A model generated the notes under the pieces. That model was not told the origin of the DNA, ran no database searches, and was given only the letters and a program-made list of their open reading frames with translations. The translations under genes were made by a program, and so were the position numbers. Of a DNA stretch of 64,000 bases, positions 9,052 to 64,000 are shown piece by piece (position 1 is the stretch's first letter; every line of letters begins with the position of its first letter). Source of the stretch: Candidatus Aenigmatarchaeota archaeon (GTDB lineage Archaea; Aenigmatarchaeota; Aenigmatarchaeia; QMZP01; QMZT01); the NCBI GenBank assembly GCA_041489155.1, contig JBGPQP010000004.1:13592-77591 (forward strand), in the 5' to 3' direction.

Positions 9052-9090
9052 GCTCCGGAAAATATAAGCGGCCGGGAGCAATTAATAAAC

Positions 9091-11196: not shown

Positions 11197-11252
11197 CATC
11201 ATCTTTTTCTATAGCCTACGCTCAAAAGCTGGTGAAATCAAAAATTAAAAAG

Positions 11253-11326
11253 GGCCACGGCCGAGATTTGAACTCGGGCTAAGGGATCCACAGTCCCTTG
11301 TGCTACCAGGCTACACCACCGCGGCC
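11253..11326 (-). tRNA. tRNA-His (GTG), no intron, with genomically encoded G-1
   Basis: Reverse complement: G-GCCGCGG TG GTGTAGCCTGGTAGCACA AGGGA CTGTGGA TCCCT TAGC CCGAG TTCAAAT CTCGG CCGTGGC C. The cloverleaf folds and the anticodon loop is CUGUGGA. The extra 5' G pairs with C73, as expected for His. Oligo-T follows. Confidence 0.9.
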
Positions 11327-11381
11327 ATGGTTTTAATTTGTGAGAAGCTGTTTTAAATGTTTTACAAGCAGGCAAAAACGT

Positions 11382-13274
11382 CTATTTTATTTTTACGTGT
11401 TCCCTTACCTTGTCACCGGGCTTGCCGGATTTTATTTCATAAATAGGTTCCCTCTTGTCCTCGGGAACATGTATGCCTATTTCCTCTGCTGCGCCCAGTA
11501 TGGCCTCGCTCCTAACTCCGCGTATTTCAGATTCTTTTGCGGTCATCAATTTGCCCGAACCTTTCCAGTCAAAATACTTTGAGCCCGGAAGGATAACGGG
11601 CACGAGCATGCCTTCCCTTGCATTAGAGCACGTGGTAAGCGAAACCACCTTTTTGCTTCCTATGCTGACTTCGCAAATCTTAAGATTGTCGGCATTGGGA
11701 TGTTTCTTTACCTCGTCTATTCTTCCTACCACGAGGCTGTCCTGAGCAAGCACATTTTCAGCGGTTTTGCCGTCAGTCTCCTCGGCGCCTTCGGTTTCCG
11801 GCTTCATGAACGGGAAGAAGATGACGTCACGTATGCTGGGCGAGTCCGTGAGCAGCATTATCAGGCGGTCGACCCCGAGGCCTATCCCTGACGTAGGAGG
11901 CATGCCGTATTCCAGCGCGCGGACGAAATCGGCATCCATCCTCTGCGCCTCTTCATCTCCACGCTTGAGGTCCCGCTCAGCCTTCTCCCAGTAATGCCTT
12001 ATCTGCTCCGGGTCATTCGCTTCGGAGTACGAGTTGATGATTTCCCATGCGTTGACGAAGCTCTCGAAGCGCTCGGCAATCCTATCGTCGTCCTGCCTCC
12101 TTTTCGAAAGGCCTGAAACGTCCGACGGGAAATCGTAAATGTGAACAGGCTGGATGAGATGCTGCTCGACCTTGCTCTCGAAGACGTGCGCGACTATCTC
12201 GCCCCACGACATGCCCTTTTCGACTTCGGCGCCGAGCTCCTTCTCGGCGGCAAACGCCTTCTCCGCGTCGAGCTTGCCGAAGTCCTTTCCGGTGTATTGC
12301 TTCACCGCGTCCAGCATGCTCATCCTCTTCCATGGCGTTTTGAATTCCAGGACCTGGCCCTGGTAGACTATCTTCGTCTTGTCGCAGACCTGCTTGACTA
12401 TATGTTCTATCATTTTCTCCGTCAGGTCCATGCTGTCATTGTAATCCGCGTAGGCGCACATGGTTTCCATCATGAGGAATTCGGGATTATGCGTCTTGTC
12501 TATGCCCTCGTTCCTGAAGTCCTGCGAGAATTCGAATATCTTTTCATACCCTCCTACGATGAGCCGCTTGAGATAGAGCTCGTTCGAGATGCGCATGTAA
12601 ATCTTCATGTCCAGCGCGTTGAGCTTCGACTCGAAGGGCCTCGCGGACGCTCCTCCGTAAATGGGCTGTAGTATCGGCGTTTCGACTTCCTTGAAGCCGT
12701 GCGTCTTTAGGAACTCGCGTGTCGCTTCTATCGCCTTTGCTCTTTTATCGAAAACGTCCTTGACCTCGGGGCTGAGTATGAGGTCCACGTATCTCTGGCG
12801 GTAGCGCAGCTCCTTGTCCTTGAGGCCGAACCAGTCCTTCGGCAGCGGGCGCAGCGCTTTGGTGAGCAGCTCAAAATTTCCTGTATGAATACTGAGTTCG
12901 CCGCGCTTCGTGCGGAGCACGTGGCCCTTCGCGCCTATGATGTCGCCCGCGTTAAGCATGGCATCGAAGAAATCGAATTTCTCCTTCCCGATGCCCGCCT
13001 CGTCTACAAGCAGCTGGATTTTGCCAGAAGCATCGTTGAGGTCGGCGAATATCAGCCTGCCGTGCTTCCTTATCGACCTTATCCTTCCCGCGACTGAAAC
13101 TATGAGCTTCTTCATCTCCTTGCCGTTCCCGAGCTTCTCCGCCTTCTTGGCGATCTCGCTGACGAGATGCGTCTTGCCGTAGCGCCTCTTGTAGGGTTCT
13201 ATCTTCCTCTTTCTCAGCTCGGAGAGCTTTATGCGCCTTTCCTCGATTTCGGAGAGCGATTCCTTTTCGGTCAT
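11382..13274 (-). CDS. lysS: Class II lysyl-tRNA synthetase fused to a C-terminal Trbp111/EMAP-II-like tRNA-binding domain
   Basis: 630 aa. N-terminal OB anticodon-binding region; class II motifs '[14 protein letters not shown]', '[16 protein letters not shown]'. The C-terminal ~110 aa '[23 protein letters not shown]...[11 protein letters not shown]' matches the CsaA/Trbp111 OB fold. Confidence 0.9.
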
Positions 13275-13855
13275 GATTCCAACCAGATCTTTTCGAAGTA
13301 GGCCTCGAACTGCTCTGCCAGCGGCGGCGAGTTTATCGCGACGCTGGCCTCGTGGTTTTGGTCGAGCGCGCTGTAGCTCCAGTTCGTGGAGCCTATGATA
13401 ATAATCTTCGAATCTATTATTATAAGTTTAGCGTGAGTCCTCGTTTCCTTGGAATCGAACTTCGCGTTTATCCCCCTTTCTTTGAGCAGCGTTACAAGCG
13501 GCCTGTCTGTCGCCTCCTCGTCCACCAGAACGCGCACGTCCAGGCCGCTCTTCGAAGCGGCTTCCAGTTTTTCAACGAGCAGGTTGGCATTGCTGTCAGG
13601 ATAATCGGCGTAGTAATTGAGGCTGTACATCACAACGTGTATGCTGCTGTTCGCCGCCTCGAGCAATGCGCTTGCCTCAGGGAAATAGCCGCGGTCCGCG
13701 AGCATCAGAGCCTGGTCAGCTTCGAGGGAGACAGGCGCATACGTAACAGGACCTGAAAGGCTCAGGGCCAGGAAGGCCGCCAGAACCAGCAGAAGCAGAA
13801 TGAGCGAAAGCATCTTTCTGCTAGAAAAAGGGAAGGGTAGCGGGCTCGCGCGCAT
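13271..13855 (-). CDS. Phospholipase D-like (single HKD) protein with an N-terminal signal/anchor
   Basis: HKD motif '[20 protein letters not shown]'. Hydrophobic N-terminus [21 protein letters not shown]. The start was chosen at ATG 13855 (MRASPL...) rather than the longer ORF at 13918. The stop overlaps the lysS start (ATGA). Confidence 0.7.
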
Positions 13856-20741: not shown

Positions 20742-22220
20742 TTACCTGAGCAGGTTTAATAAAAGCGGCGATGCGTTAACCAGCATCAAACCCACTATCA
20801 GCATTATTACCGCGTTCACGAGCAGCTCCTTTGTGCTCCTCCTGATTCTGAATTCCGCAACTAGCTCCTCGAACATCTTGCCACCGTCGAAGGGGACGAT
20901 CGGCAGGAGGTTCACGAGGGCGACGTTGAAGCTGAGGAAGAATATCCAGAAAAGCGTAGGCGTGAAGAAGAAGACGGCTTCCGCCTGAAGCCTGTACTTC
21001 TCCCTGAACTCGTCCTTGAGCTTGGAGGTTTCCTGCAGATCTATGCCTATGTAGCCCCTGCTTGCGTTGTCCGTCCTGGATGCGACGGTCAGGTTGAAGG
21101 TGCCGTTGGACGTGACGAAATTCACCTGCTGCCTGGGTTTTATCTGCGAGACGGCGAGATTGAAGGATTCGACGTCAAGCGTGGGCATGCCGTTTATTTC
21201 TTTTATCACGTAGCCCTTATCGAGGACGCCGTAAGCCGGCGTGCCGTTAGCAACGTTAGTTATAATCATGCCGGTAGGCTCGGTCATCATGCCAAGCGCC
21301 GGCCCCATCACGGAGACCAGCAGCAAGAGAGCGATTAGCGCGACTATGAGGTTGGTGAAAGAGCCTATCGCGTATATCCTCATCCTGCCCCTGCTCCTGT
21401 AAAGCTTCATGCCCTTCTCGTCCGGCTCAACGAAACCGCCTATGGGAAGCGGCCCCGCGGTAAGGATGCCTGCCGACTTGAGCCTTATCTTGTGCGACCT
21501 GGTAAGGACGCCGTGCGCGAATTCGTGCGGCACGAGCAGGCATATCATCGCTATCAGAGCCTGCCAGAAGGGGATGAAAATCCCTGTCCCGGGGAAGAAG
21601 AAACCCGGCCCTTCGCTGCTTACCGTGGGCAGCAGCGGCGATACGCCAGGGACGCTGCTCTGCAGCAGGATAATTTTCAGAGCCTGCGAGAACAGCAGGC
21701 TGATGAGCAGCGAGGGAATGCCAAACACGCCGACGAGAACCGAGACGTAAGGCTTGAGGAAGCCCATGTCGGAAAGCATGGGGAAAATTTCAAACGCTAT
21801 GACGCCCATGACCACGGCAGCAGCTGCCAGGTGCATCAGTTTTCTTTCGCTTCTCCTCAGCAGATAAACGCCTGCAGCGAGCACGCAAACGCCGATTACC
21901 GCAGGCAAAACGCCGAAGGAAAGGTACGTGAAAATCAGCGCTGCTGCGCCGAGCACGAGGGCGACGGACCATGTGTTACGGTATTTCGCGACGTAATAGC
22001 CTCCGACCCCTCCGAACGAAACCACTATTGCGATGTCGCCCAAGAATTTCCAGAAATAAGGCGAAAGCCTAGCGATGTTGTCGACGAACCTGAGGCCGTG
22101 CCTCGTCTCTATCATGAAGAAGACGTTGAAGAATCTTTTGTAACTTGTCCTGCTTAGCAGGATGAGGCCTATCAGAAAGGCGGCGATGCCTATTATTATG
22201 TAAGAATCAACAAATTCCAT
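20742..22220 (-). CDS. Site-2 protease family (M50) intramembrane metalloprotease with PDZ domain
   Basis: Multiple TM helices, 'VPHEFAHGV' (HExxH), a PDZ-like segment (GMIITNVANGTPAYGVLDKGYVIKEINGMP), and distal 'NLLPIVPFDGG'. Confidence 0.85.
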   Translation of the reverse strand: MEFVDSYIIIGIAAFLIGLILLSRTSYKRFFNVFFMIETRHGLRFVDNIARLSPYFWKFLGDIAIVVSFGGVGGYYVAKYRNTWSVALVLGAAALIFTYLSFGVLPAVIGVCVLAAGVYLLRRSERKLMHLAAAAVVMGVIAFEIFPMLSDMGFLKPYVSVLVGVFGIPSLLISLLFSQALKIILLQSSVPGVSPLLPTVSSEGPGFFFPGTGIFIPFWQALIAMICLLVPHEFAHGVLTRSHKIRLKSAGILTAGPLPIGGFVEPDEKGMKLYRSRGRMRIYAIGSFTNLIVALIALLLLVSVMGPALGMMTEPTGMIITNVANGTPAYGVLDKGYVIKEINGMPTLDVESFNLAVSQIKPRQQVNFVTSNGTFNLTVASRTDNASRGYIGIDLQETSKLKDEFREKYRLQAEAVFFFTPTLFWIFFLSFNVALVNLLPIVPFDGGKMFEELVAEFRIRRSTKELLVNAVIMLIVGLMLVNASPLLLNLLR

Positions 22221-43692: not shown

Positions 43693-44802
43693 ATGGGCGT
43701 CAGAAGCGTTGATATTAAGGATGAAATAAAAGAGGTCGTGAAGAGGAAACAGCACCCTGAGGTCGACGAGGAACTCAGGAAGATTCTTGAGTCCAAGAAG
43801 GCCGAGATCAAGGTCATAGGAGTCGGAGGCGCAGGAGGCAACACCATCTCGCGCATGACGCAGGTGGGCATAATCGGCGCCGAGACTATCGCGATGAACA
43901 CCGACGCCCAGGACCTGCTTTATACTGATGCTGACACCAAGGTCCTCATAGGCAGGGAACTTACCGGAGGCCTTGGAGCAGGCGCCGACCCGAAGGTCGG
44001 GACGGAAGCCGCGAAAGAGTCGAAAGAAGACATCAAGAAAGCGCTGGAAGGCGCCGACATGGTGTTCGTGACCTGCGGCCTTGGCGGCGGAACCGGGACC
44101 GGCGCAGCGCCGATAATCGCGGACATCGCGAAGAAAACCGGCGCGCTAACCGTGGGCGTTGTCACGCTTCCGTTCGGGATGGAAGGCAAGCAGAGGATGA
44201 GGAACGCGCAGGACGGCCTTGAAAATCTGCAGTCCATTGCCGACACCCTCATAATCATACCCAACGACAAGCTGCTTGAAATCGTCCCTGACGTATCGAT
44301 AACCACGGCGTTCAAAGTCGCTGATGAGATACTTGTAAACTCGGTCAAGGGCATAACGGAACTCGTCACCAAGCCCGGCCTTGTTAACCTCGACTTCGCG
44401 GACGTCCGCGCGGTGATGGGTGCAGGCGGCCTTGCCATGATAGGCATGGGCGAGAGCGACACGGAGAACCGCGCGCTTGAATCCGTCGAGAAGTCGCTGA
44501 ACAATCCGCTGCTTGACGTGAGCATAGAAGGCGCTTCTGGCGCCCTGATAAACGTCGCCGGCGGCGAGGACATAACCATAAAGGAATGCCAAGAAATCGT
44601 GGAGGCCGTCACGACCAAGCTCAACCCGGACGCGAAGATAATCTGGGGAGCGCAGATCGTTAAGGAGCTCGGCGACACCATAAGGGCGATGCTGATAGTG
44701 ACCGGAGTGAAATCCTCGCAGGTTTTCATGACCGAGAAGAAATTCACTTCAGCGAAGCAGAAAGAGATAGAAAGGGTTCTCGGGATAGACTTCGTGGAAT
44801 AA
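43693..44802 (+). CDS. ftsZ: Cell division protein FtsZ (second paralog)
   Basis: 'VIGVGGAGGNTISRM', 'NTDAQDL', 'GLGGGTGTGAAPIIA' and 'NLDFADVRAVM'. It lies upstream of secE-spt5, as in many archaea. Confidence 0.92.
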   Translation: MGVRSVDIKDEIKEVVKRKQHPEVDEELRKILESKKAEIKVIGVGGAGGNTISRMTQVGIIGAETIAMNTDAQDLLYTDADTKVLIGRELTGGLGAGADPKVGTEAAKESKEDIKKALEGADMVFVTCGLGGGTGTGAAPIIADIAKKTGALTVGVVTLPFGMEGKQRMRNAQDGLENLQSIADTLIIIPNDKLLEIVPDVSITTAFKVADEILVNSVKGITELVTKPGLVNLDFADVRAVMGAGGLAMIGMGESDTENRALESVEKSLNNPLLDVSIEGASGALINVAGGEDITIKECQEIVEAVTTKLNPDAKIIWGAQIVKELGDTIRAMLIVTGVKSSQVFMTEKKFTSAKQKEIERVLGIDFVE

Positions 44803-45574: not shown

Positions 45575-47641
45575 TCAGCGTAATTTTCTTATCATGATTT
45601 TATTGTACAGCCTTTTCAGCCTTATGTATTCTTCGCCGGCCAGTTTCCTTTCCTCGTAAGAAAGCGAATTGTAAATATGATTGGCCTTTTCATACGCATC
45701 CTTAGCGCCGTCCATATCGGTTTCAACCAATGACTCTCCTATTCTCAAAAAGCCGCGCATATTATCAATCTTATCTTTGGCATCTGCGGTTCTGTCCCTC
45801 CGTTGCGGCGGACCTTCTTCATTGTAGTCAGCGTATCCAATCTCTTTCCTGAAAATAGCTTTTAGGTTGTTTTTCTGCTCCTCCAGATGGGCAGCCCTCA
45901 GCAATTTCGATATCTTTTTATTGTAAAATGCAATCATAGATAAGGCAATCAGCACGACGATGATTATTGAAACTATTACTGTGCTCCGGCTCAGTTCCTT
46001 GAAATATATTTTTTCCATCAGCTGTTCGAGCAGCTTTTTTGCTTCCAGGAGAGAGACATACGCATCGATGAATCTGTTCTCCTTTTTTAGCGTAATGCTT
46101 CTGAAAACCATCTCGTTCACAGTTTTAAGCACATCTTTTTCTTCCGAATATGCTTCTGCCTTAATCATGTCAGAACTCATGTCTTGCATGATTCTGAAAT
46201 ATTCAGCATTCAGAACTAATTCGATGGTCTCGGTCACGTAGTCGTATCCGTTCATTGCCTGTTTTGATTTTTCCATGGTTCCGTTGTAATCACCGGAGGC
46301 AAACATTTTCATTGCGGCATCGAGAGCAGAATCAAAGTCGGACATGTTTTTTTCAGAGCCTGGCACTTCCAATCCGAAGTTATTTGTCCAATTCAACATC
46401 GCATGCGTCTCTGATTTTCTTCTGACAGCCTCTTCGAGCATGAATTTCGCGCGGTTTTTTGTGCTCCTTGAAACCCCTAGCGCAACCACTTTCGGCACTT
46501 CTGATGTGCCGGACTTGGCAACAAGCGAAAGGCTGTATAACTGCTCGATTGCGCTGTCCGGAAGCTTGATCGCAACAAAAAAATTCTTTGATTCACCAGT
46601 TTTGATGTCCTGCTGTGTGGGGGCTACAAGTACCCAGTTGGAGGTAATACCATACACCTGAAGGGAGGTGTTATATGCCGTGGAATTGCCCGTGTTTTTG
46701 ACCTCAACGCTGAATTTCAATTCCTCTCCTGGGAACGCTTCGAGATAGTTCGGCGATATTATTGCAAAATCGGGCCTGGGCAGTTCCTGCGGGATAATTG
46801 CGCCCGAAGTGCCTCCGCCGCCATTTCTTGGCGGCGGCGAAGAAAGAACATAAAATAGCGGGCTGACGGCTCGTTTTATGTTTTCGTCGTTGGGATACTT
46901 TAGGGCAGCGATGAAATAGTATGAACCCGTATTCTCATTTACCGCAACGCTCTTGGTGTAATTCAGCCATTCTGCTATTGCTTTCCACGCGCATCCGTAG
47001 TTGTTGTAAGAAGGACCGCAAAGATATGCAGGATCACTGTTTATGCAGTAACAAATCTGGACATCGGTTGTTTCAAGGGGGGTAATCTTGTGTACCGAAA
47101 TGTCCGCTTCGATGACCTGTCCTTGGTAAAGTGCTGAGGGCCTTATGCCCGTGATCTCTATATCATCGATTGGATTTGTTGTGTTGACGTGGATCTGCAA
47201 GCTGGTGCTGTTCAAGCGATTGTCGTCAAGCGAGTATGAATAGAAAGTAATGTCATAAGTCCCTCCGTCATATCCGCTGCTTGGAGGAACATAGATGCGC
47301 AAGGTGACATTGCGGTCGCCGAAACCGGGCAGCAGGAATGCATAGTTGTCCTGGTAATAACTCATGCCTCCGCTCTGGTTCTGGAATTTAACGAAGCCGT
47401 TGGTATCGCTCTTGTTCAGGTATACGAGGACGTCAAGCGGATGGTTCTGGTAAACGGTCAGGTTCAGATAAAAGTAGTAGTCTTCAGGCACAAGTACGTT
47501 GCCATACTGCGGGAAAACGCCAAGCATACCCTTGACAGTGGCGTTCATATTGGTACTGCCGCCGGCGTACTGGGCCGATGCATTTGATGCCAGCAGCAAA
47601 TAGAAAACTGTGAAGCAAAGAATACTAAGGGAACTCCTCAT
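45575..47641 (-). CDS. Secreted surface protein with CARDB-like domain, helical stalk, TM anchor and cytoplasmic helical tail
   Basis: Signal peptide MRSSLSILCFTVFYLLLASNASA|Q. 'FPGEELKFSVEVKNTGNSTAYNTSLQVYG' is CARDB-like. TM 'VIVSIIIVVLIALSMIAFY'. Its architecture resembles the C-terminal half of the 13931 protein. Confidence 0.7.
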   Translation of the reverse strand: MRSSLSILCFTVFYLLLASNASAQYAGGSTNMNATVKGMLGVFPQYGNVLVPEDYYFYLNLTVYQNHPLDVLVYLNKSDTNGFVKFQNQSGGMSYYQDNYAFLLPGFGDRNVTLRIYVPPSSGYDGGTYDITFYSYSLDDNRLNSTSLQIHVNTTNPIDDIEITGIRPSALYQGQVIEADISVHKITPLETTDVQICYCINSDPAYLCGPSYNNYGCAWKAIAEWLNYTKSVAVNENTGSYYFIAALKYPNDENIKRAVSPLFYVLSSPPPRNGGGGTSGAIIPQELPRPDFAIISPNYLEAFPGEELKFSVEVKNTGNSTAYNTSLQVYGITSNWVLVAPTQQDIKTGESKNFFVAIKLPDSAIEQLYSLSLVAKSGTSEVPKVVALGVSRSTKNRAKFMLEEAVRRKSETHAMLNWTNNFGLEVPGSEKNMSDFDSALDAAMKMFASGDYNGTMEKSKQAMNGYDYVTETIELVLNAEYFRIMQDMSSDMIKAEAYSEEKDVLKTVNEMVFRSITLKKENRFIDAYVSLLEAKKLLEQLMEKIYFKELSRSTVIVSIIIVVLIALSMIAFYNKKISKLLRAAHLEEQKNNLKAIFRKEIGYADYNEEGPPQRRDRTADAKDKIDNMRGFLRIGESLVETDMDGAKDAYEKANHIYNSLSYEERKLAGEEYIRLKRLYNKIMIRKLR

Positions 47642-47672
47642 GTACAAATGATTGAATCGTTTCCATATAAAA

Positions 47673-48245
47673 CTACTTTCCGGATTTCTTTTTATTGCGC
47701 TTTTTCAAAACGAAGATTGCAACCGCCAGCGCCACGATTATCAATACGGCTGCCGAAAAAATAACGGGCAATATGCCAATGGGCTCCACTTGCACAGAAA
47801 ATTCATATGGCTCCTTTATCGTGGCTACCCCTATTTTTATGCTGTTAAGGATTGCACCATTGTAGACGACCTTTTCGGGGTTAATCTGGTAAATGATGGG
47901 CGCAGAAATTTCAAGGCACACCACCTTGCAAGATGGGTTGTCTGGGGACATGCACTTCTCGGAAATGCAAGATCGCCTCAAGTTCGTTTCCTGCGGGCAG
48001 TCAATCGGCGTTAGAGTAAAATCGTTAGGCGATATCTTTGTAGTGAGGGTGCTTACATCACCCGTGGTTCCTATATGATACGTCCCGCCTTCCTGGGTGG
48101 CGTAAATCCAGACGTCGCAGAAGTTGGTTTTGCTTCCGGATGGAAGTGTAATGCCGCCCTGTCCAAGAGAAATGCCTGCCTCAGCATTTGGCAAAAGCGA
48201 TATTAAAAACAAAACGGCCACGAGTGTCGCTAAATAAAGTCTCAT
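47673..48245 (-). CDS. Secreted protein with C-terminal TM anchor, hypothetical
   Basis: Signal MRLYLATLVAVLFLISLLPNAEA|G and C-terminal 'VIFSAAVLIIVALAVAIFVLKKRNKKK'. Confidence 0.6.
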   Translation of the reverse strand: MRLYLATLVAVLFLISLLPNAEAGISLGQGGITLPSGSKTNFCDVWIYATQEGGTYHIGTTGDVSTLTTKISPNDFTLTPIDCPQETNLRRSCISEKCMSPDNPSCKVVCLEISAPIIYQINPEKVVYNGAILNSIKIGVATIKEPYEFSVQVEPIGILPVIFSAAVLIIVALAVAIFVLKKRNKKKSGK

Positions 48246-48364: not shown

Positions 48365-48976
48365 TTAAGCGCACGTTCCGCAGTTGCTCTCAGAGGTTCC
48401 TTCTTGTCTTCCGCACCAACAGTATCCGGTTACATATACGCCTGGCTGCTGGCCGGCCGGTACACTAAGGAAGTATGTTGCCCAGCAGTTCGAATTAATC
48501 GAGCTGCTTTCGCACGTTTCCATTCCAGACCACCCGTTGGTCAGCGATATCGCAGTGCCGTTGCTGAAAATGTTGGTGCCGTTGTTCGCGGTGCTGTTTG
48601 CATGATAAGTGACGTTGCCTATGCCGATGTAATAACTTTCGGTCGTGAGGTTGGTCCTGTTGCTCGCATGTGAGAAATTGATGCTCACCGTAGATGAAGC
48701 GTCGACCGTGAGGTTAAAGGTCGAGCCTCCGTTGGCGGCGTTGTTGTTGCAACTCGCGTTGTTGCCGTTGCTGCTCTGATCCTGGGTGGCGAATGTAATG
48801 CCGTTCGTGAGGCAATTTGAGATTAAAATCGACACCCATCCGCGAACCGTCACGTTCATCGTTGTGCTGCCGGTCGCGTAGTCAGCCGAGTCTCCCAAAG
48901 GAGTGAAAACGCTTAACGTAAGCGCAAATAAGCCGAATACTATGAATATTCCCAACGCCCCAATTCCAACTCTCAT
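48365..48976 (-). CDS. Secreted/anchored protein homologous to the C-terminal domain of the 1,724-aa protein
   Basis: N-terminal hydrophobic helix. 'GITFATQDQ', 'IGIGNVTY' and 'YFLSVPAGQQPGVY' align with 'GIRFAEQDP', 'IGIGNVTV' and 'YFWLSVPQGQDPNSY' at the giant protein's C-terminus. Confidence 0.6.
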   Translation of the reverse strand: MRVGIGALGIFIVFGLFALTLSVFTPLGDSADYATGSTTMNVTVRGWVSILISNCLTNGITFATQDQSSNGNNASCNNNAANGGSTFNLTVDASSTVSINFSHASNRTNLTTESYYIGIGNVTYHANSTANNGTNIFSNGTAISLTNGWSGMETCESSSINSNCWATYFLSVPAGQQPGVYVTGYCWCGRQEGTSESNCGTCA

Positions 48977-49035: not shown

Positions 49036-52000
49036 CTACCCCCTTTCTTCTTTTATGTAAATCGTTGTGTTGTACGAGTTCGGGTCCTGTCCCTGCGGAA
49101 CCGACAGCCAGAAATACAGAGTAGTTATGTTGCTCTGGCCCGCGGGAACGTTCGACCTTATCAACTGATAGCCAGTTGAAAGCTGTATGACCTGGGAATC
49201 TGGCGACGTAGAATTGACAGTTACGTTACCTATGCCTATGACCGAACTCCCGTTTACCAGGTCACCTGTCGCCATTATCGAAACGTTGACTGTCCCGCAG
49301 CCAGCGGTGGACAAATCGGTTATGTTGTAGTTCCCGTTGTCCACCGCGGAAACGTTAACCTGATCCGGGTCCTGCTCAGCGAAGCGAATGCCTGCCTCAA
49401 GCTGCGAAGTCATTGCGAAATCAACGTTGCAGGCGCTCACGCTCAAATTCAGAACAGTCGTGTTCGAATTAATCCTTCCGGAAGAATCGTTCACGTACGT
49501 GGTGTTGTAAAAGAACGTCCCGGCCGAATCGCCCACGTTAACATTCACCGAATACCAGCCGTCGCCAGCCGAACCTGCGCAGCTGCCTGTGTCGGACATC
49601 GTTATATTGAATATGCTCCCGTTGGATTGCGTTACCGTAGTCCAGACAGCATTTACCCCAAAATTATCAGAAACTCCTGAAACGTTCAGGCATACAATTG
49701 TATTCATGCCCACAGAGCCTGAGTTGTTGATATGTTTGCTTCCTATTTGTGGGTTTGTTAAATCTACCGTGAACGTCCTGTTCACGTTGGACCAGTCTGC
49801 CTGATTAATTGTATCATTACACCACGCATCCCACTTCCATGTCCCTTCTGGTATGCCGGAGACGGTCACATTCCACCAACCGTTGTTCGTGGGGCTTGAA
49901 TTGGTCTGGTTCGCGTGCCAGCCTGACCAGTTGCCGTAGAGCTTGAGCGTACTCACGCCTATATTATCAGAACACTTCAAATCGAAAACTATTGAGCCGT
50001 CGGAGTCGTTATAATAGGTGACAGGATTCGTTCCCAGGGAGGCGGTTGGGTCGGCATCACTTTCTTCTTCTATCGTTATGTTGTGTTCCGAACCCAGCGT
50101 CAGGGTGAAGTTCAACTCTCCGTTAGCCTGCGATGTGAGATTGCAGTTCGCATCATTACAATCATTTCCGTCCATCTTTGCGGAATAGTTAATTGTCGTG
50201 TTTGGCATCTGCACTGTCAGATTTGTTGAGCCTGTCCCGTCCAAATAAATAGTTGCGTTATTTGTATCAGATGCAGGCGAGGTTGCTGATAAAATAAGGA
50301 CATCGGTGTTTGTGTTGTTCTTTATTTGAGGGGTTGTTGTGTACAAGTAAGATATGTTTACATAAGAAGGATTTGTTTGATTAGTATACCATGTTGGATG
50401 CGTTCTCAATTTAACAGCCAGCCGGTACCATGATTTTACATAATCCATTGACCAGTTCACAGTAAAGTTTCTGTTAATCCATGTATAGACAGTTACAATG
50501 GGGACACTTTGATTATAATCGCTGTTACTATCATAAGTAGTATATCTTTCAACACCTGTATAACTATCTGATTCAGCTTTATACCAAAAAGACATGTTCA
50601 TATCTTTAATAAAACTGGGGACAGTTACCGTTAAATCATCAGGAGATGCTTGAACCCAACCACTGCAGCTCCAATATTCTTCTGTTGTTGGGGGCGTTAA
50701 AAGCAAAGATTTTGCATCGGTGCCAATACCTGTTGGCTGACCGTGCGTTGGGTTAACATCCCTGAAATAGTAATCCACTTTTGCTTCTGTTGTATTAACA
50801 AGAAACGCATAGTTTCTTATTACATTATTGTTGTTGGTGGGTTCTGTTACATTTATTAGCAAAGAATATAACCCAAGCCTTGTTGCCGTAAAATTCCCTG
50901 TAATGCTATTCCCGCTTTTTGACATACTAACTGTTTCATAAGGCCTTGTTGTTATGTTGTATGCGCAATTATCGCAGGCTCCTCCACCTAGATAATACAG
51001 AGATATATTAAATCCAACCAAGTCATTAACATTAGGCGTTTGATTAGTTGTTGAAACCGTAATCATGGTGTTATTAATATTATGTATAAATTTATTATTG
51101 GAATAGATATTGTTTGAACTACTCATATCATATACATTATTTGATATAGTATTCCCAGTTAGATGGGTATTAGACGAAGACTGAAGATAAATACCATACC
51201 GAATGTTTGAATCGGCAGTGTTATTCGTAAGGTTGTTATCATAAGACGAAGAATCAATATAAATCCCGGCATAATAATTCGAATTAGCAGTGTTATTCGT
51301 AAGGGTGTTATTAGATGAACCCTGAAGATAAATACCAGAGCCCATGGACCAAGTGTTCGAATTGGCAGTGTTATTCGTAAGGGTGTTATTAGATGAAGAA
51401 GAAAGATAAATACCATGAGAGTTCATGCTCAAATTGACAGTGTTATTCGCAAGGGTATTAGATGAAGAATAAAGAAAAATACCCGCGTGGACACTCGAAC
51501 TAATAATATTATTGGCTATAATGTTATTATCAGAATAAGAATAAAATGTAAGTCCACGATAATTATTTGTTATAGTATTTCCTCTAATTTCTGTTCCTGT
51601 TGCATTAATCTCCAAACCATACTTACCGTCTGTGTTAGACCATCCAGCCTCGCTCAGCAAGGAATTCTTCATCGCAAATGTTGAGCCAGAATCAACTTTA
51701 AAGAAGAATTCACGTGTTGTATTGACTGCTGTGATATTGCTTGCATCACTTGTTGTTGATGCGTCATCATCATTGTCATAGATGTAGAAAGCCCCTCCTG
51801 ACTGTACTTTGATTCCGTACTGGCCATCACTAGAAGAATTCATTTTAGGGGTGACGTTCCTGAATGTGAGATTGCCGCCGTTCTGTATTGTAAGATTGCC
51901 AGTCATTGTCATTATTCTATTGCTGCACATCTGTGTATTGCTAATAATCCAATCATCACCACTGCCAGGATATGCACAGGTTGTATTAATACTGAATGAA

Positions 52001-54210
52001 ACATTTGTTATGCTATTAAGATTTCCCAATGTGTCATTTGCAAACAAGTATAATGTGTGCGTTCCTTCTGATGTGTCGAATGTTGTGTTTGCGCAGTTTG
52101 CCAATGTCGTGTTGGCGCCTTTGTCAAGGTTGTACCAGCACTTATCAACGCCTGTGTAATCCGTGACAGTGTAATTCAAGTTTATTGACAGATTTCCGTA
52201 TGTTCTGTTTTTTGGAGCAACTATTGTGATGCTTGGCGGTATGTTATCCGCTTGCACTTGCAGAGAGCCAGTATTATCTAGGTTTGCTGAACCTGCCTCT
52301 ATGTAGGTTGATGTTCCTACTGCACATCCTTCAACTGTCCAGTTAATAGTGCCAGCAGGATTGCTTGCGGGAAGGATAGAGCAAGAAACGTTGCTGGCGT
52401 AAATAGCGCAATAGGAAGCCATGGTGCCAGTCGTTTGTATCGCTATAATTCGTATCTGGTTTGAACCGCATGCATTAGTTATTGTCGCGCCACCTGAAAC
52501 TGTTAAGGTGATTGTTCCGCTCCATGGGTCGCCAGTTTCATAGTGCACAACCGAGAAGGTTGTGTTCTGGCCTAAGCTTATTGGTGAAGTGACAACAGTA
52601 AATGATGAATCATAAAGCCTTGCTGGCGCGTCGCTTGCAATCATCCATTGTCTCGACTCTTTCCAATTGCCGATTTCAAGCGGCCCGAGGATGAAGAGAG
52701 AGGGGGAGATGTCGGGCGCATCGAATTCGTAACCGATTTCATAGGTTTCGCCCGGGGTCAGCTTCTTGTCCCATGACAGAATCTTGGCATCCCCCGCGTC
52801 TGTGACCGTCATACCTTCATTAGGCGTTATTTCAAAGCCTGAAGGCACGTATTCGTTTATCAGGCCTTCGTAATCCTTGTTAGCCTTTATGACGAAAATC
52901 ATACTGTATTTCGCCGGCGGATATATTCTTGTCGGACCATTTCTTGCGACGTCGAAATCCGTTCGCTTTTTCACCTCGAATGCGTCTGTCATGCTCCTTA
53001 CGCCGTTCATTGTAATAGCTGTCAGATTCATGGTATATGTACCTTCCTTGTTCACGATGTAAGAGGCATAGTAATCGGGAAGGTTGGTCACTCCGTAGAG
53101 TTCGCATTCAGGCGAAACGCTTATAGTGCCATCGGACGTTCCCAAGGTTGTTGTTACGCCTTGCGAATCTGTTATTTGAAGCGTTACGTCGGCGTTGCAG
53201 ACCATGTGACCTTGGTCGTCCAGAACGGCCATTCCGATGAAGGCCTGCTCGTTTTCGAGATAAATCGATTTGTGGGTGTTTATGGCGAGCACGCCCCAGA
53301 GGAATTCCCCTTCTTTTTCGTATGTTTCATTCCCCTCCTTTACCTCCATCCTTATCTTGTACAAACCCGCCCTGAACGCCCTTCCTTTCGAAAGCTCTAT
53401 TTCATACTCCCCACTGCCAACCTTCAAAACATCCGCTTTTACCTCAAGCAATTTCCGGTCAGGGCCGTAAACAAAAACATTCAAAACCTCCGGCCATGTT
53501 CCCTCCTCGATTATCTTTCCCTGCTCGGAAAATACATTTTTCGAGATCAGCCTGAATCTCGGTTTTTCGTTCATCCCGAATCTCTCCTTTACTGGCGAGA
53601 ATCCCACAACTTTTTCCAAGAATAACCTTGGGAATGTTTCGTTGGTTTCCGTTACGTTCAGGTCGTGTTCAAGGAATGACCTGTTCTCGCTTGTTTTGTT
53701 AAACTCCTCTTCAAGAACAGTCCTATTCATAGCGGTTTCATTTTTCAGGAATGTCCTGTTTTCTGCCAACCCAGAAATCAGTTCCTCTCTCGTGACGTTC
53801 GATTCAACGCAGTCCCTGCATGTGCCCCACAAATATTTTCCCGTGGTTTCGTAGCCTTCACTCACATTATCGAAGGTTAAATCAGGAACATATTCAAGAA
53901 TTTGGACGATTGTCACGCTCGCGAAGAGCACTAGCAAGGCAAGAATGATAAAACCGGCGTTGATGCTGCACGAGGATTTGGCCCATGCACCTCTGGGGAA
54001 CCTGTGGCCGTTTTTCGTTTTCGGATAATGCAGCTTCGCCTTGCCTACGTCCCTCACGATAATCTTGCCCGTTGCCTGAAGGACGACGAGATATTTAGAG
54101 GCAGTCATCCTGTTTATGGCTAGCGCGCTGGCTATTTCCTCTATTGTAAGCCCGTAATCGTGTTTTGCGACAAGTTTCAGAATTTTTTCCTCAGTGCCGT
54201 TTCCGCCCAT
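49036..54210 (-). CDS. Giant (1,724 aa) membrane protein: N-terminal winged-helix domain, one TM helix, extracellular Ig-like domains and parallel beta-helix (PbH1/NosD-like) repeats
   Basis: wHTH 'ILKLVAKHDYGLTIEEIASALAINRMTASKYLVVLQATGKIIVRDVGKAKLHY'. TM 'GFIILALLVLFASVTIVQIL'. PbH1 repeats 'NNTLTNNTANSN...GIYLQSSSN'. Dense N-x-S/T sequons. Confidence 0.85.
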   Translation of the reverse strand: MGGNGTEEKILKLVAKHDYGLTIEEIASALAINRMTASKYLVVLQATGKIIVRDVGKAKLHYPKTKNGHRFPRGAWAKSSCSINAGFIILALLVLFASVTIVQILEYVPDLTFDNVSEGYETTGKYLWGTCRDCVESNVTREELISGLAENRTFLKNETAMNRTVLEEEFNKTSENRSFLEHDLNVTETNETFPRLFLEKVVGFSPVKERFGMNEKPRFRLISKNVFSEQGKIIEEGTWPEVLNVFVYGPDRKLLEVKADVLKVGSGEYEIELSKGRAFRAGLYKIRMEVKEGNETYEKEGEFLWGVLAINTHKSIYLENEQAFIGMAVLDDQGHMVCNADVTLQITDSQGVTTTLGTSDGTISVSPECELYGVTNLPDYYASYIVNKEGTYTMNLTAITMNGVRSMTDAFEVKKRTDFDVARNGPTRIYPPAKYSMIFVIKANKDYEGLINEYVPSGFEITPNEGMTVTDAGDAKILSWDKKLTPGETYEIGYEFDAPDISPSLFILGPLEIGNWKESRQWMIASDAPARLYDSSFTVVTSPISLGQNTTFSVVHYETGDPWSGTITLTVSGGATITNACGSNQIRIIAIQTTGTMASYCAIYASNVSCSILPASNPAGTINWTVEGCAVGTSTYIEAGSANLDNTGSLQVQADNIPPSITIVAPKNRTYGNLSINLNYTVTDYTGVDKCWYNLDKGANTTLANCANTTFDTSEGTHTLYLFANDTLGNLNSITNVSFSINTTCAYPGSGDDWIISNTQMCSNRIMTMTGNLTIQNGGNLTFRNVTPKMNSSSDGQYGIKVQSGGAFYIYDNDDDASTTSDASNITAVNTTREFFFKVDSGSTFAMKNSLLSEAGWSNTDGKYGLEINATGTEIRGNTITNNYRGLTFYSYSDNNIIANNIISSSVHAGIFLYSSSNTLANNTVNLSMNSHGIYLSSSSNNTLTNNTANSNTWSMGSGIYLQGSSNNTLTNNTANSNYYAGIYIDSSSYDNNLTNNTADSNIRYGIYLQSSSNTHLTGNTISNNVYDMSSSNNIYSNNKFIHNINNTMITVSTTNQTPNVNDLVGFNISLYYLGGGACDNCAYNITTRPYETVSMSKSGNSITGNFTATRLGLYSLLINVTEPTNNNNVIRNYAFLVNTTEAKVDYYFRDVNPTHGQPTGIGTDAKSLLLTPPTTEEYWSCSGWVQASPDDLTVTVPSFIKDMNMSFWYKAESDSYTGVERYTTYDSNSDYNQSVPIVTVYTWINRNFTVNWSMDYVKSWYRLAVKLRTHPTWYTNQTNPSYVNISYLYTTTPQIKNNTNTDVLILSATSPASDTNNATIYLDGTGSTNLTVQMPNTTINYSAKMDGNDCNDANCNLTSQANGELNFTLTLGSEHNITIEEESDADPTASLGTNPVTYYNDSDGSIVFDLKCSDNIGVSTLKLYGNWSGWHANQTNSSPTNNGWWNVTVSGIPEGTWKWDAWCNDTINQADWSNVNRTFTVDLTNPQIGSKHINNSGSVGMNTIVCLNVSGVSDNFGVNAVWTTVTQSNGSIFNITMSDTGSCAGSAGDGWYSVNVNVGDSAGTFFYNTTYVNDSSGRINSNTTVLNLSVSACNVDFAMTSQLEAGIRFAEQDPDQVNVSAVDNGNYNITDLSTAGCGTVNVSIMATGDLVNGSSVIGIGNVTVNSTSPDSQVIQLSTGYQLIRSNVPAGQSNITTLYFWLSVPQGQDPNSYNTTIYIKEERG

Positions 54211-54271
54211 CAGAAACCTCGCCAGCCAAAAACCATGTTTAATTATTTATACGAGGTCATATAAATTTTTT

Positions 54272-54298
54272 AATCATTGATGATTATCATTGATGATT
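54272..54298. promoter_or_regulatory. Tandem imperfect palindromes (2 x ATCATTGATGATT) in the divergent promoter region
   Basis: AATCAT-TG-ATGATT (54272-54285) is followed directly by ATCATTGATGATT (54286-54298). The site lies 62-88 nt upstream of the giant gene's ATG (54210, minus strand) and ~105 nt upstream of rpl11. Confidence 0.35.
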
Positions 54299-63494: not shown

Positions 63495-64000
63495 TTATTC
63501 CCACACGAACTCGAACTTTTCGAAGTTCGTCTTTTTCTCGCGGCTGCTGATTCTCCATACGGTCATGATAATCAGGCCGCTGAGCACGCCGCCCACGTGG
63601 CCGAAATTCGCCACGCCCGGATCGAGGCCCATAAGACCGAAGAACGTCTCCTCGACCAGCAGGAAGACTAACATCACTGCCGCCGGCATGGGAAATAAGC
63701 CGAGCATGTAGACCCAGCTGGTGGGATAAAGAAACGCGTAAGCGGCCAGCACTCCGAAGACTGCGCCTGATGCGCCTATCAGGCCTGCGCCTATCGCTCC
63801 ATAAAGCCAGGACATGACGCCGATGTAGAACAGGGCTGAGCCTATGCCTGATAAAATGTAAAGAGCAGTGAATTTTTTCGTGCCTATGCTCTGCTCCAGC
63901 TGGAAGCCGAATATGGCGAAAACGAACATGTTTATGACCAAGTGGCCGGGGTAGATGGTAACGCCGGCGGCCGTCTCGGCGTAGGTTGCGTGCAGGAACA
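63495..64000 (-). CDS. Rhomboid-family intramembrane serine protease (N-terminus beyond the right edge)
   Basis: 'GASGAVFGVLAAY' (GxSG) and 'FGHVGGVLSGL' (catalytic His). Translation upstream of the TTG at 63941 stays open to 64000 and reads ...FLHATYAETAAGVTIYPGHLVINM, containing the rhomboid HxxxN motif. Confidence 0.8.
   Translation of the reverse strand, partial: FLHATYAETAAGVTIYPGHLVINMFVFAIFGFQLEQSIGTKKFTALYILSGIGSALFYIGVMSWLYGAIGAGLIGASGAVFGVLAAYAFLYPTSWVYMLGLFPMPAAVMLVFLLVEETFFGLMGLDPGVANFGHVGGVLSGLIIMTVWRISSREKKTNFEKFEFVWE

Follow-up and report, generated by a model that had tools for sequence, protein, structure and literature searches.

Gene architecture and sequence features

A 64,000-nt stretch of a Candidatus Aenigmatarchaeota genome (contig JBGPQP010000004.1, positions 13,592 to 77,591; hereafter the window, with positions counted from its first nucleotide) contains a gene that codes for a winged helix-turn-helix (wHTH) domain, a hydrophobic helix, and a giant ectodomain in one polypeptide. 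The aIF5B encoded in the flanking region has 75%–78% identity to proteins assigned to Candidatus Aenigmatarchaeota (Aenigmarchaeota), and this one marker places the window in that DPANN phylum. The gene lies on the minus strand, and a tandem palindrome sits upstream of it, next to a candidate promoter. Features identified in the gene and its upstream region are as follows, in the direction of transcription; aa stands for amino acids, and relatives are numbered P for proteins and L for genomic loci.

54273–54298, no strand assigned: candidate operator, an exact tandem pair of 13-nt units (gene strand: AATCATCAATGAT), each with the palindrome ATCAT-N2-ATGAT, directly 5' of the TATA-like boxes
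54244–54265, minus strand: candidate promoter read from the sequence, with TATA-like boxes TTTATATG (54265–54258) and TATAAATA (54251–54244) and an A-rich stretch resembling a factor B recognition element ahead
54216–54220, minus strand: Shine-Dalgarno-like GAGGT read from the sequence, 5 nt ahead of the ATG
49036–54210, minus strand: complete and intact coding sequence for the wHTH, membrane helix, and giant ectodomain (1,724 aa, ATG start)
54022–54201, minus strand: cytoplasmic wHTH, aa 4–63 (Pfam HTH_11, AlphaFold, Foldseek, and invariant alignment columns)
53959–54021, minus strand: basic linker of low model confidence, aa 64–84, rich in K, R, and H, with a K-S-S-C motif
53890–53958, minus strand: single hydrophobic helix, aa 85–107 (Kyte-Doolittle profile; an AlphaFold helix in a block with a predicted local distance difference test score, pLDDT, of 97)
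53626–53889, minus strand: acidic spacer rich in glycosylation sequons, aa 108–195 (translation and sequon count)
52606–53625, minus strand: stalk module of three tandem Ig/macroglobulin (MG)-like beta-sandwich domains, aa 196–535 (homologue coverage, AlphaFold, and Foldseek)
51040–51606, minus strand: right-handed parallel beta-helix with PbH1 repeats, aa 869–1057, in the variable middle of low GC content (Pfam, NCBIfam, and tandem repeats)
49039–49437, minus strand: conserved C-terminal domain, aa 1592–1724, retained in relatives with a wholly different middle

A preliminary description of this DNA had named a start codon downstream of the wHTH, a frameshift, or an assembly error as ways in which the fused architecture could prove false. 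Inspection of the translation found no in-frame ATG, GTG, or TTG after the wHTH ends at aa 63 and before the hydrophobic segment begins, so an alternative start that retains the membrane helix is ruled out. The same N-terminal architecture is present in independently assembled relatives (P0001, P0002, P0020, and P0033, and loci L005–L009 and L016), which excludes an assembly or frameshift artefact and confirms that the arrangement recurs in other archaea. Paralogues of the N-terminal, stalk, and C-terminal parts were not found elsewhere in the window, apart from a weak similarity between the C-terminal domain and a neighboring 203-aa open reading frame (ORF).

The ectodomain is 1,617 aa long, and 94% of the protein is predicted to lie outside the cell. 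It has 81 N-X-S/T sequons compared with 38 ± 5 in composition-matched shuffles, in agreement with the sequon-rich exterior described earlier, and none occur in the cytoplasmic aIF5B and FtsZ encoded in the window. The Ig-type and NosD-like PbH1 repeat domains that had been described were recovered as well. The stalk was modeled by AlphaFold with a pLDDT of 89 and a predicted template modeling score of 0.78, and its Foldseek matches are MG domains of alpha-2-macroglobulin and complement, Ig arrays, and Sap S-layer domains. A role as a thioester or enzymatic domain was considered for the stalk and rejected, as the model consists only of three beta-sandwich domains with no catalytic match. This segment (aa ~200–530) is the only part in common with ~118 of 120 whole-protein homologues, and occurs at 40%–63% identity in more than 100 giant proteins of DPANN archaea (Woesearchaeota, Aenigmatarchaeota, Altiarchaeota, and others) and bacteria of the candidate phyla radiation (CPR). 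Further along, Beta_helix (PF13229) scores 128 bits (E = 3e-37), NosD-type repeats have an E value of 4e-22, and PbH1 repeats (TIGR03804) match in five stretches (83.6 bits, E = 5e-24). Assignment to the NosD family itself (TIGR04247) was rejected at 38 bits against a curated cut-off of 300; generic parallel beta-helix repeats are all that is in common. Tandem repeats of 72 nt occur within the beta-helix region (51168–51483), and GC content over 50300–51900 is 0.35–0.38 vs 0.47–0.51 at both ends of the gene.

The N-terminal domain and the membrane helix

The N-terminal wHTH that had been proposed is borne out by profile, model, and structural comparison. Pfam HTH_11 (PF08279) matches aa 7–52 with 25.5 bits, marginally above the gathering cut-off of 25, and a stand-alone relative (P0128) scores similarly at 25.3 bits; matches to IclR, HTH_23, and HTH_24 are weaker. 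There was no match to Trans_reg_C, the OmpR/PhoB-type winged helix, anywhere in the protein at E values up to 0.1. An AlphaFold model of aa 1–119, built from a 42-sequence alignment, has a mean pLDDT of 85.6 with block means of 94–98 over aa 11–60, and contains three helices (4–16, 23–30, and 34–46) followed by a beta-hairpin wing (50–55 and 58–63). Foldseek comparison of the wHTH model with the PDB returned the DNA-binding domains of ArsR, MarR, IclR, and DriD, with a best root-mean-square deviation of 1.0–1.6 Å over 58–65 residues. A profile search of PDB sequences again returned ArsR/MarR/IclR-type families, weakly. The predicted structure thus has the wHTH fold whose absence would have counted against the earlier proposal. 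The recognition helix corresponds to aa 34–46 (R-M-T-A-S-K-Y-L) and the wing to G56-K-A-K-L60. Across 28 aligned family members, R34, T36, A37, S38, K39, Y40, L41, and G56–L60 are invariant, as a conserved DNA target would predict.

The single membrane helix reported to follow the wHTH was also recovered. Residues 85–107 form the sole Kyte-Doolittle peak above 1.6 in the whole protein, and there is no helix at the C-terminus. A K/R/H-rich stretch precedes this segment and acidic residues follow it, which fits an orientation with the N-terminus inside. On the cytoplasmic side, a juxtamembrane K-S-S-C-(G/S) motif (53959–53980, aa 77–84) is kept throughout the window's fused clade, with K-S-S-C-G in P0001, P0033, P0188, and L005–L009, and its conserved cysteine could be a lipidation or redox site.

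Two roles are open to the helix, that of a type-II signal anchor and that of an internal signal peptide. As a permanent type-II anchor, it would make the protein a transmembrane transcription regulator (TTR) as defined in PMC10269533. The other role, as a cleavable signal peptide within the chain, is suggested by two patterns among relatives. Giant proteins encoded next to a separate wHTH gene open with classical cleavable signal peptides (VKA|EQT in L022, VQA|KQT in L029, and SLG|FE in L044), and most fused relatives have small-x-small motifs straight after the helix (TTA|N, ITA|N, THA|D, TNA|E, TSA|N, AYA|I, and AFA|A). In the window protein the hydrophobic stretch runs for ~20 residues with no clear small-x-small site at its end, a pattern more typical of an uncleaved anchor.

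A conserved candidate operator that co-varies with the recognition helix

The preliminary description had singled out palindromes at 54272–54298 as a possible target of the wHTH. Two exact tandem 13-nt units are present there, at –86 and –73 relative to the ATG and thus within 150 nt of it, and were found both by a repeat search and independently by Tandem Repeats Finder (13 nt × 2.2, 100%). The exact unit occurs nowhere else in the window, and a search for further copies that might define a regulon returned only chance-level matches with 1–2 mismatches inside coding regions. Two TATA-like boxes lie 34–55 nt upstream of the ATG and probably act as the promoter, as far as their sequence and spacing can tell. 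The order of operator, ~8–10 nt, a strong TATA box, ~30–35 nt, and ATG is repeated in relatives L004, L007, and L009. A scan for sigma-70 promoters and intrinsic terminators gave counts near the shuffle expectation and is uninformative for an archaeon.

A motif of the type TCATYAATGA, usually in two to three units 13 nt apart, is found upstream of wHTH genes from different species, both those fused to a giant protein and those that stand alone. Its enrichment was measured in the 150 nt upstream of 25 wHTH genes, with the upstream regions of other ORFs in the same loci as controls. The motif is present in 17 of the 25 wHTH upstream regions vs 11 of 321 control regions (Fisher P = 6.5e-16), and the difference holds against AT-matched controls (8 of 59; P = 1.7e-6). 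Its density is 3.9 per kb in these upstream regions and 0.13 per kb across the remainder of the ~500 kb of loci. An unbiased 8-mer enrichment converged on the same site, with the top 8-mers all being pieces of AATAATCATTAATGATTATT.

The motif co-varies with the protein. Members with a recognition helix of the form INR[MAS]TASKYL pair with ATCATnAATGAT, and members with IHR[VI]TASKYL (L022, L029, L040, L045, and L048) pair with GTCATTAATGTC or GACATTAATGTC. Because the palindromes are conserved upstream of the family's genes and co-vary with the recognition helix, the wHTH is a probable sequence-specific autoregulator. The wHTH domain is genuine, it very probably binds DNA, and the palindromes are its likely target, in line with the DNA binding that had been proposed.

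Operator position differs between clades. In the fused clade it lies 8–10 nt upstream of a strong TATA box, and in a clade of split genes (L012–L014 and L018) it is downstream of the TATA box and ahead of the start codon. The two clades may therefore not have the same sign of regulation.

Split and fused forms of a two-gene module

When the first 115 aa served as the query, 67 proteins were recovered; almost all are 64–92 aa long, with up to 68% identity and no membrane segment. The window wHTH is 50%–68% identical to P0121–P0172, which have in common with it the I-[NH]-R-x-T-A-S-K-Y-L recognition helix and the G-K-A-K-L wing, and the closest wHTH relatives overall are ~150 stand-alone proteins of 60–100 aa, mainly from Aenigmatarchaeota. 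At E ≤ 1e-3, an exhaustive profile search extended the family to 1,160 members. The 145 new cluster representatives include 86 small soluble proteins and 10 that exceed 300 aa and have a membrane helix within their first ~100 residues, in nine cases directly behind an N-terminal wHTH. The long fused members include P0190 (2,119 aa) and P0309 (4,136 aa).

Genomic context was surveyed in 80 loci from species-representative genomes. The closest relatives (L005–L009, 68%–73% identity) and L016 are fused as in the window. In L010, L012–L015, L018, L019, L022, L029, L040, L043–L045, L058, and L064, an ORF of 370 to more than 2,500 aa that opens with a signal peptide or anchor comes after a small wHTH gene. 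These split pairs make up ~15 of ~33 stand-alone loci. Their spacing ranges from an overlap, mostly of 4–25 nt, to a gap of 0–120 nt, and a GGAG(G) Shine-Dalgarno-like element lies within the 3' end of the split wHTH gene. At the P0128 locus, for example, a 75-aa wHTH gene overlaps the start of the gene for a 1,243-aa Laminin_G_3 protein by 13 nt. The split module thus appears, from its gene layout, to be a 60–100-aa wHTH gene whose stop codon overlaps the start codon of a gene for a large exported surface protein, which couples the two in translation. Programmed frameshifting between the split genes was set aside, as no canonical slippery site was evident at the junctions inspected.

Since stand-alone wHTH relatives sit directly before genes for large exported proteins, the window gene is best described as a fusion of this two-gene module, with wHTH, export signal, and large extracellular protein in the same ORF. 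Both forms can coexist, and one metagenome-assembled genome holds a fused copy (L007) and a split copy (L022) together. In a nearest-neighbor comparison of wHTH domains, fused proteins fall into at least four to five groups that are each closest to stand-alone proteins; fusion has therefore been repeated and tolerated, and it appears to have arisen at least four times. The split, soluble wHTH is probably the ancestral as well as the commonest form and would work with no covalent link across the membrane. Within the sequence examined, giants encoded after split wHTH genes do not have the stalk module. What is shared is limited to a weak similarity of the C-terminal domain, with 29% identity (E = 4e-7) to the C-terminus of a 1,243-aa protein of a split pair (L001/L013).

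Constant ends around an exchanged middle

Locus L004 is syntenic with the window, with aIF5B, GINS, and ribosomal protein L11 at 75% nucleotide identity. The segment holding the promoter and wHTH (window 54305–54002) has 71% nucleotide identity to L004, and the C-terminal domain has 74%. At the protein level the C-terminal domain is 79%–80% identical to P0033/L004 and 74% identical to a 521-aa fused protein of L009. PQQ-type beta-propellers take the place of the beta-helix in the middle of the L004 gene. The promoter, wHTH, and C-terminus were kept while the middle was replaced; the regulator therefore travels with the locus and not with a particular ectodomain. The comparison shows a cassette locus with constant ends, with the promoter, wHTH, and helix at one and the 130-aa C-terminal domain at the other.

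Probable autoregulation and alternative explanations

On balance, we think it probable that this wHTH-headed membrane protein binds its own tandem operator and autoregulates a giant, N-glycosylated, cassette-variable surface protein. In this model the cytoplasmic wHTH would act as a sequence-specific DNA-binding domain that recognizes the tandem palindromic operator at 54273–54298, abutting its own promoter. Binding there would autoregulate the giant, N-glycosylated, cassette-variable protein to which the wHTH is fused. The window protein would then be the covalent version of a two-gene module common in Aenigmatarchaeota, namely an operon-specific autoregulator that is translationally coupled to, or repeatedly fused with, the export signal of its target. 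Both DNA binding and autoregulation are read here from conservation and co-variation. Negative feedback limiting a very costly protein is the favored sign, because the operator lies between the TATA box and start codon in the split clade. The wHTH may act while tethered, which is plausible in a very small cell, and regulation from the membrane is known for other transmembrane regulators (PMC10269533).

Several observations weigh against this model. Eight of the 25 wHTH loci yielded no upstream motif and may carry diverged variants. The half-sites are only 6–7 bp apart, which is unusual for a wHTH dimer, and the conserved footprint could be another factor's site or a promoter element common to the gene family. 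In the fused clade the operator is just upstream of the TATA box and not over the start site, which makes the sign of regulation uncertain. Access to DNA may be restricted for a regulator anchored beside a 1,600-aa ectodomain. About half of the stand-alone wHTH relatives are not beside a giant gene, some being near MazF-like or PIN-like genes, so the family is not tied exclusively to surface proteins.

A possible but unlikely alternative is that DNA-binding capacity is released by secretion. The helix would be an internal cleavable signal peptide, and signal peptidase would split the ectodomain from a stub of ~100–110 aa made up of the wHTH and the signal peptide. The stub would either stay as a short membrane-tethered regulator or be cleared by the site-2 protease (S2P), signal-peptide peptidase, or rhomboid, freeing one wHTH per exported giant, and the fused gene would mimic the 1:1 ratio that translational coupling gives in split pairs. 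The cleavable signal peptides on the split-pair giants of L022, L029, and L044 and the small-x-small motifs directly behind the helix of fused relatives are consistent with such a route, and conserved operon partners with membrane anchors of their own could hold the mature ectodomain. In the window protein, however, the anchor-like stretch of ~20 residues with no clear small-x-small site argues against cleavage. Candidate intramembrane proteases, which the preliminary description had put forward as the agents of release, are encoded at two positions in the window.

20742–22220: M50 (site-2 protease) family peptidase, 492 aa, 28 kb from the giant gene
63495–63941: rhomboid-domain ORF, 148 aa as listed and possibly longer, 9 kb from the giant gene

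Both genes do exist, as stated, but at these distances the locus has no linked protease gene within the window, and nothing found here points to release. Neither is present in the 15-kb syntenic locus L004, which ends before that distance. Tethered factors released by regulated intramembrane proteolysis are cut first by a site-1 protease and next by an intramembrane one, and the protease genes are often close by or share a regulon. Here the S2P/rhomboid proposal gains plausibility only by way of signal-peptidase cleavage; if that occurs, the wHTH stub left behind (~11 kDa) is possibly an intramembrane-protease substrate.

The preliminary description had interpreted the protein as a one-component signaling device across the envelope. 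In such a sensor, contact with a host or surface, or extracellular cleavage, would alter the oligomeric state or trigger regulated intramembrane proteolysis and so switch the wHTH. The architecture fits the definition of a TTR (PMC10269533), the adhesin-like and hypervariable ectodomain is what would be expected of a host-facing protein, and an analogous arrangement of HTH_17, membrane helix, and giant ectodomain occurs in CPR bacteria. We nevertheless regard this as doubtful, and the comparison of relatives does not support the interpretation in the form proposed. The nearest wHTH relatives are free-standing, of 60–100 aa, with neither sensor nor membrane segment, and the commonest form of the module has a separate soluble wHTH. 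A covalent link is thus not needed for function. The middle of the ectodomain is freely swapped while wHTH and operator stay constant, which is hard to square with a tuned signal path through one helix. A Pfam search of the window protein found no HAMP or other transducing module, and the M50 and rhomboid genes are unlinked. The evidence favors autoregulation of a cassette-variable surface-protein locus over an outside-in signaling device.

It is improbable that the wHTH does not bind DNA and serves as a cytoplasmic folding plug, a topology determinant, or a docking domain for assembly of a surface complex. Such folds sometimes serve protein-protein contacts, the Pfam score is barely over threshold, and in other giants of the family a coiled-coil head of ~100 aa that does not bind DNA occupies this position. 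Against this, neither recognition helix nor wing varies, free-standing homologues exist with no membrane partner domain, and the family's own promoters hold a conserved, co-varying palindromic motif. This operator evidence makes the purely anchoring or assembly role that had been offered as an alternative unlikely. An artefactual joining of a small regulator gene to a surface-protein gene by sequencing or assembly error, or by a recent inactivating mutation, is conceivable with gene overlaps of merely 4–25 nt in relatives, where one indel could fuse the two, but has a negligible likelihood given the same fusion, with its conserved basic linker and K-S-S-C, in ~10 independently assembled sequences from different samples and species and the 71% nucleotide identity to L004 that spans the junction region.

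To our knowledge, little is known of how DPANN archaea and CPR bacteria regulate the giant surface proteins thought to mediate host attachment, and few recognizable signaling systems occur in either group. This locus offers a concrete candidate regulator-operator pair, consisting of a 60-aa domain and a 26-bp site. Naturally split and fused versions provide a clean test of whether tethering matters, and an ectodomain swapped as a cassette between constant ends is a third gain from the locus. If the autoregulating wHTH works from the membrane or is released on export, it would be a very compact coupling of surface-protein production to gene expression, and would extend the TTR catalogue to a class with ectodomains of up to ~4,000 aa (P0309). 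The fused and split pair could show how ultra-small DPANN cells control costly, fast-changing surface proteins.

Comparison with known membrane-bound and autoregulatory systems

TTRs such as ToxR, TcpP, and CadC were surveyed in a census (Demey et al. 2023, PMC10269533) that found them to be common, with single-pass forms most frequent. Archaeal genomes average approximately four TTRs, and DPANN archaea are not named in the main text of that paper (PMC10269533). The window protein has both a predicted DNA-binding domain and at least one transmembrane region in the same protein, as in the definition used there, and resembles TTRs in joining a cytoplasmic DNA-binding domain to one membrane helix. 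Its wHTH is of the HTH_11/IclR/ArsR type, unlike the OmpR/PhoB type of ToxR and CadC, and its exterior is a 1,617-aa multi-domain adhesin-like structure and not a compact sensor. In further contrast to TTRs, it seems to regulate its own gene, and a separate upstream gene codes for its free-standing relatives.

ArnR and ArnR1 of Sulfolobus acidocaldarius are membrane-bound activators of archaellum and pilus genes (PMC6396743). They are archaeal and membrane-bound with an N-terminal HTH, and have surface-structure genes as targets, which the window protein probably has as well. ArnR consists of a cytoplasmic HTH, HAMP, and sensor domains with two C-terminal membrane helices and no large ectodomain (PMC6396743), whereas the window protein lacks a HAMP match, and its one helix comes straight after the wHTH, with no further helix at the C-terminus. 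The nanohaloarchaeal 'SPEARE' proteins are giant membrane-anchored surface proteins of 8,900–9,400 aa with a cytosolic VirB4/TraG-like ATPase (PMC10266531). They too are cell-bound DPANN giants with Ig-like arrays, a functional cytosolic domain across the membrane, and strain-specific content. Their cytosolic domain is described in PMC10266531 as an ATPase and not a DNA-binding domain.

The window protein has the fold of ArsR/SmtB, MarR, and IclR autoregulators, a palindromic operator at its own promoter, and a gene that heads its operon. It differs from them in lacking a ligand-binding or dimerization extension, in its giant exported target, and in repeated fusion to the export signal of that target. 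The literature search, aimed for the most part at such fusions, found no description of a wHTH-giant ectodomain fusion, of a small wHTH and giant-gene module, or of the operator, which is not proof of novelty. For fusions of HTH domains to giant proteins in DPANN or CPR, it found only the general TTR census, ArnR, and the nanohaloarchaeal giants.

Cytoplasmic heads on giant proteins of other lineages

Of the 120 giant homologues, 27 begin with a long stretch ahead of their first hydrophobic segment, and in ~24 of the 27 it is a recognizable cytoplasmic head: wHTH in five, HTH_17 in nine from CPR, and a coiled coil in approximately ten of Woesearchaeota type. The last of these (P0026, P0028, P0037, P0038, P0041, P0043, P0047, P0056, P0059, and P0076) carry a charged coiled-coil-like head of ~85–120 aa in the position of the wHTH. 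The CPR (Patescibacteria) giants P0081, P0085, P0086, P0094, P0096, P0099, P0111, P0114, and P0117 resemble the window protein in having one or two cytoplasmic HTH_17 domains, a membrane helix, and a 1,100–2,700-aa ectodomain with an Ig/MG stalk. They differ in coming from bacteria and in the HTH_17 itself, which is MerR/excisionase-like and unrelated to the wHTH (34.5 bits vs a cut-off of 27). The wHTH heads of DPANN and HTH_17 heads of CPR look like convergence.

More tentatively, and with the chances clearly against it, convergent evolution in the two lineages may have linked a DNA-binding domain directly to the anchor or export signal on host-facing giants, such that export, cleavage, or engagement feeds back on transcription. 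If true, this would be a minimal protease- or contact-gated circuit for counting or sensing adhesins with no two-component system.

Repeats were also seen at two CPR loci with HTH_17 giants. At L087 (2462–2774), a divergent 80-aa HTH_17 gene has inverted repeats in the intergenic region common to both genes, with TTTATTAATG and CTTAATAAAC occurring twice each. At L085 (2651–2728), TATATCGGATAAAT occurs three times, 270–350 nt upstream of the giant gene. These upstream repeats hint at convergence and are anecdotal, coming from two loci.

Other settings of the wHTH family

In L025, L034, and L051 (~300–350 nt downstream of the wHTH), and in L021 and L055, stand-alone wHTH genes have MazF/PemK-like (MQIRRGD..LDP..GSEQ) or PIN-like ORFs behind them in place of a giant gene. 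This arrangement suggests that the family may also be used in toxin-antitoxin-like contexts.

In Methanolinea, Methanoregula, and relatives (L023–L042, L057, L066, and L067), the wHTH (~45%–50% identity) forms the N-terminus of soluble PAS and HATPase_c proteins of ~410–700 aa. The Methanolinea proteins, more distant relatives with the same N-terminal wHTH, are counted in favor of a DNA-binding function.

A surface-structure locus of archaeon GW2011_AR5 (L053:6237–13716) contains two TadC/GspF-like membrane genes, a pilin-like 242-aa gene, two small wHTH genes (10010–10186 and 10413–10601), and a 1,019-aa surface protein. A 322-aa ORF in the same locus (8301–9269) has a different wHTH directly followed by a membrane helix, with operator-like palindromes just upstream at 8168 and 8194.

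Neighboring genes

Three genes for exported proteins lie downstream of the giant gene, and the window also encodes FtsZ, which is not adjacent to it.

48365–48976, minus strand: 203-aa secreted protein rich in sequons, with a C-terminal half resembling the C-terminal domain of the giant; L004 orthologue 59% identical
47673–48245, minus strand: 190-aa protein that starts with a signal peptide and has a membrane anchor at the C-terminus; L004 orthologue 53% identical
45575–47647, minus strand: 690-aa surface protein with a signal peptide, CARDB-like domain, membrane helix, and cytoplasmic coiled-coil tail; L004 orthologue 59% identical
43693–44802: FtsZ

The 203-aa and 690-aa proteins both have Y-A-[TG]-G-S-T-[TN]-M-N-[VA]-T-V-[RK]-G directly behind their signal peptides. 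This motif hints at a common assembly or donor-strand-like segment.

Locus L004 differs from the window by several insertions and a residual gene fragment (L004:3595–4433, 10547–11758, 11925–12149, and 12878–13630). A nucleotidyltransferase/HEPN (MNT-HepT) pair is inserted between L11 and the giant gene, and an AAA ATPase (DUF4143) and a ParA-like gene are inserted downstream of it. A residual 74-aa copy of the giant's C-terminal domain lies downstream of the inserted ATPase gene. The residual copy is what replacement of the cassette by recombination could leave behind.

On the other side of the giant gene, ribosomal protein L11 (54393–55004) has a C-terminal tail of ~50 aa that is rich in Ala, Pro, Lys, and Glu (AAAPAAAPVEGEAPAAAP...KKEEKPKEEKKRKIRRGK). 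Its orthologue in L004 is comparably long (198 aa).

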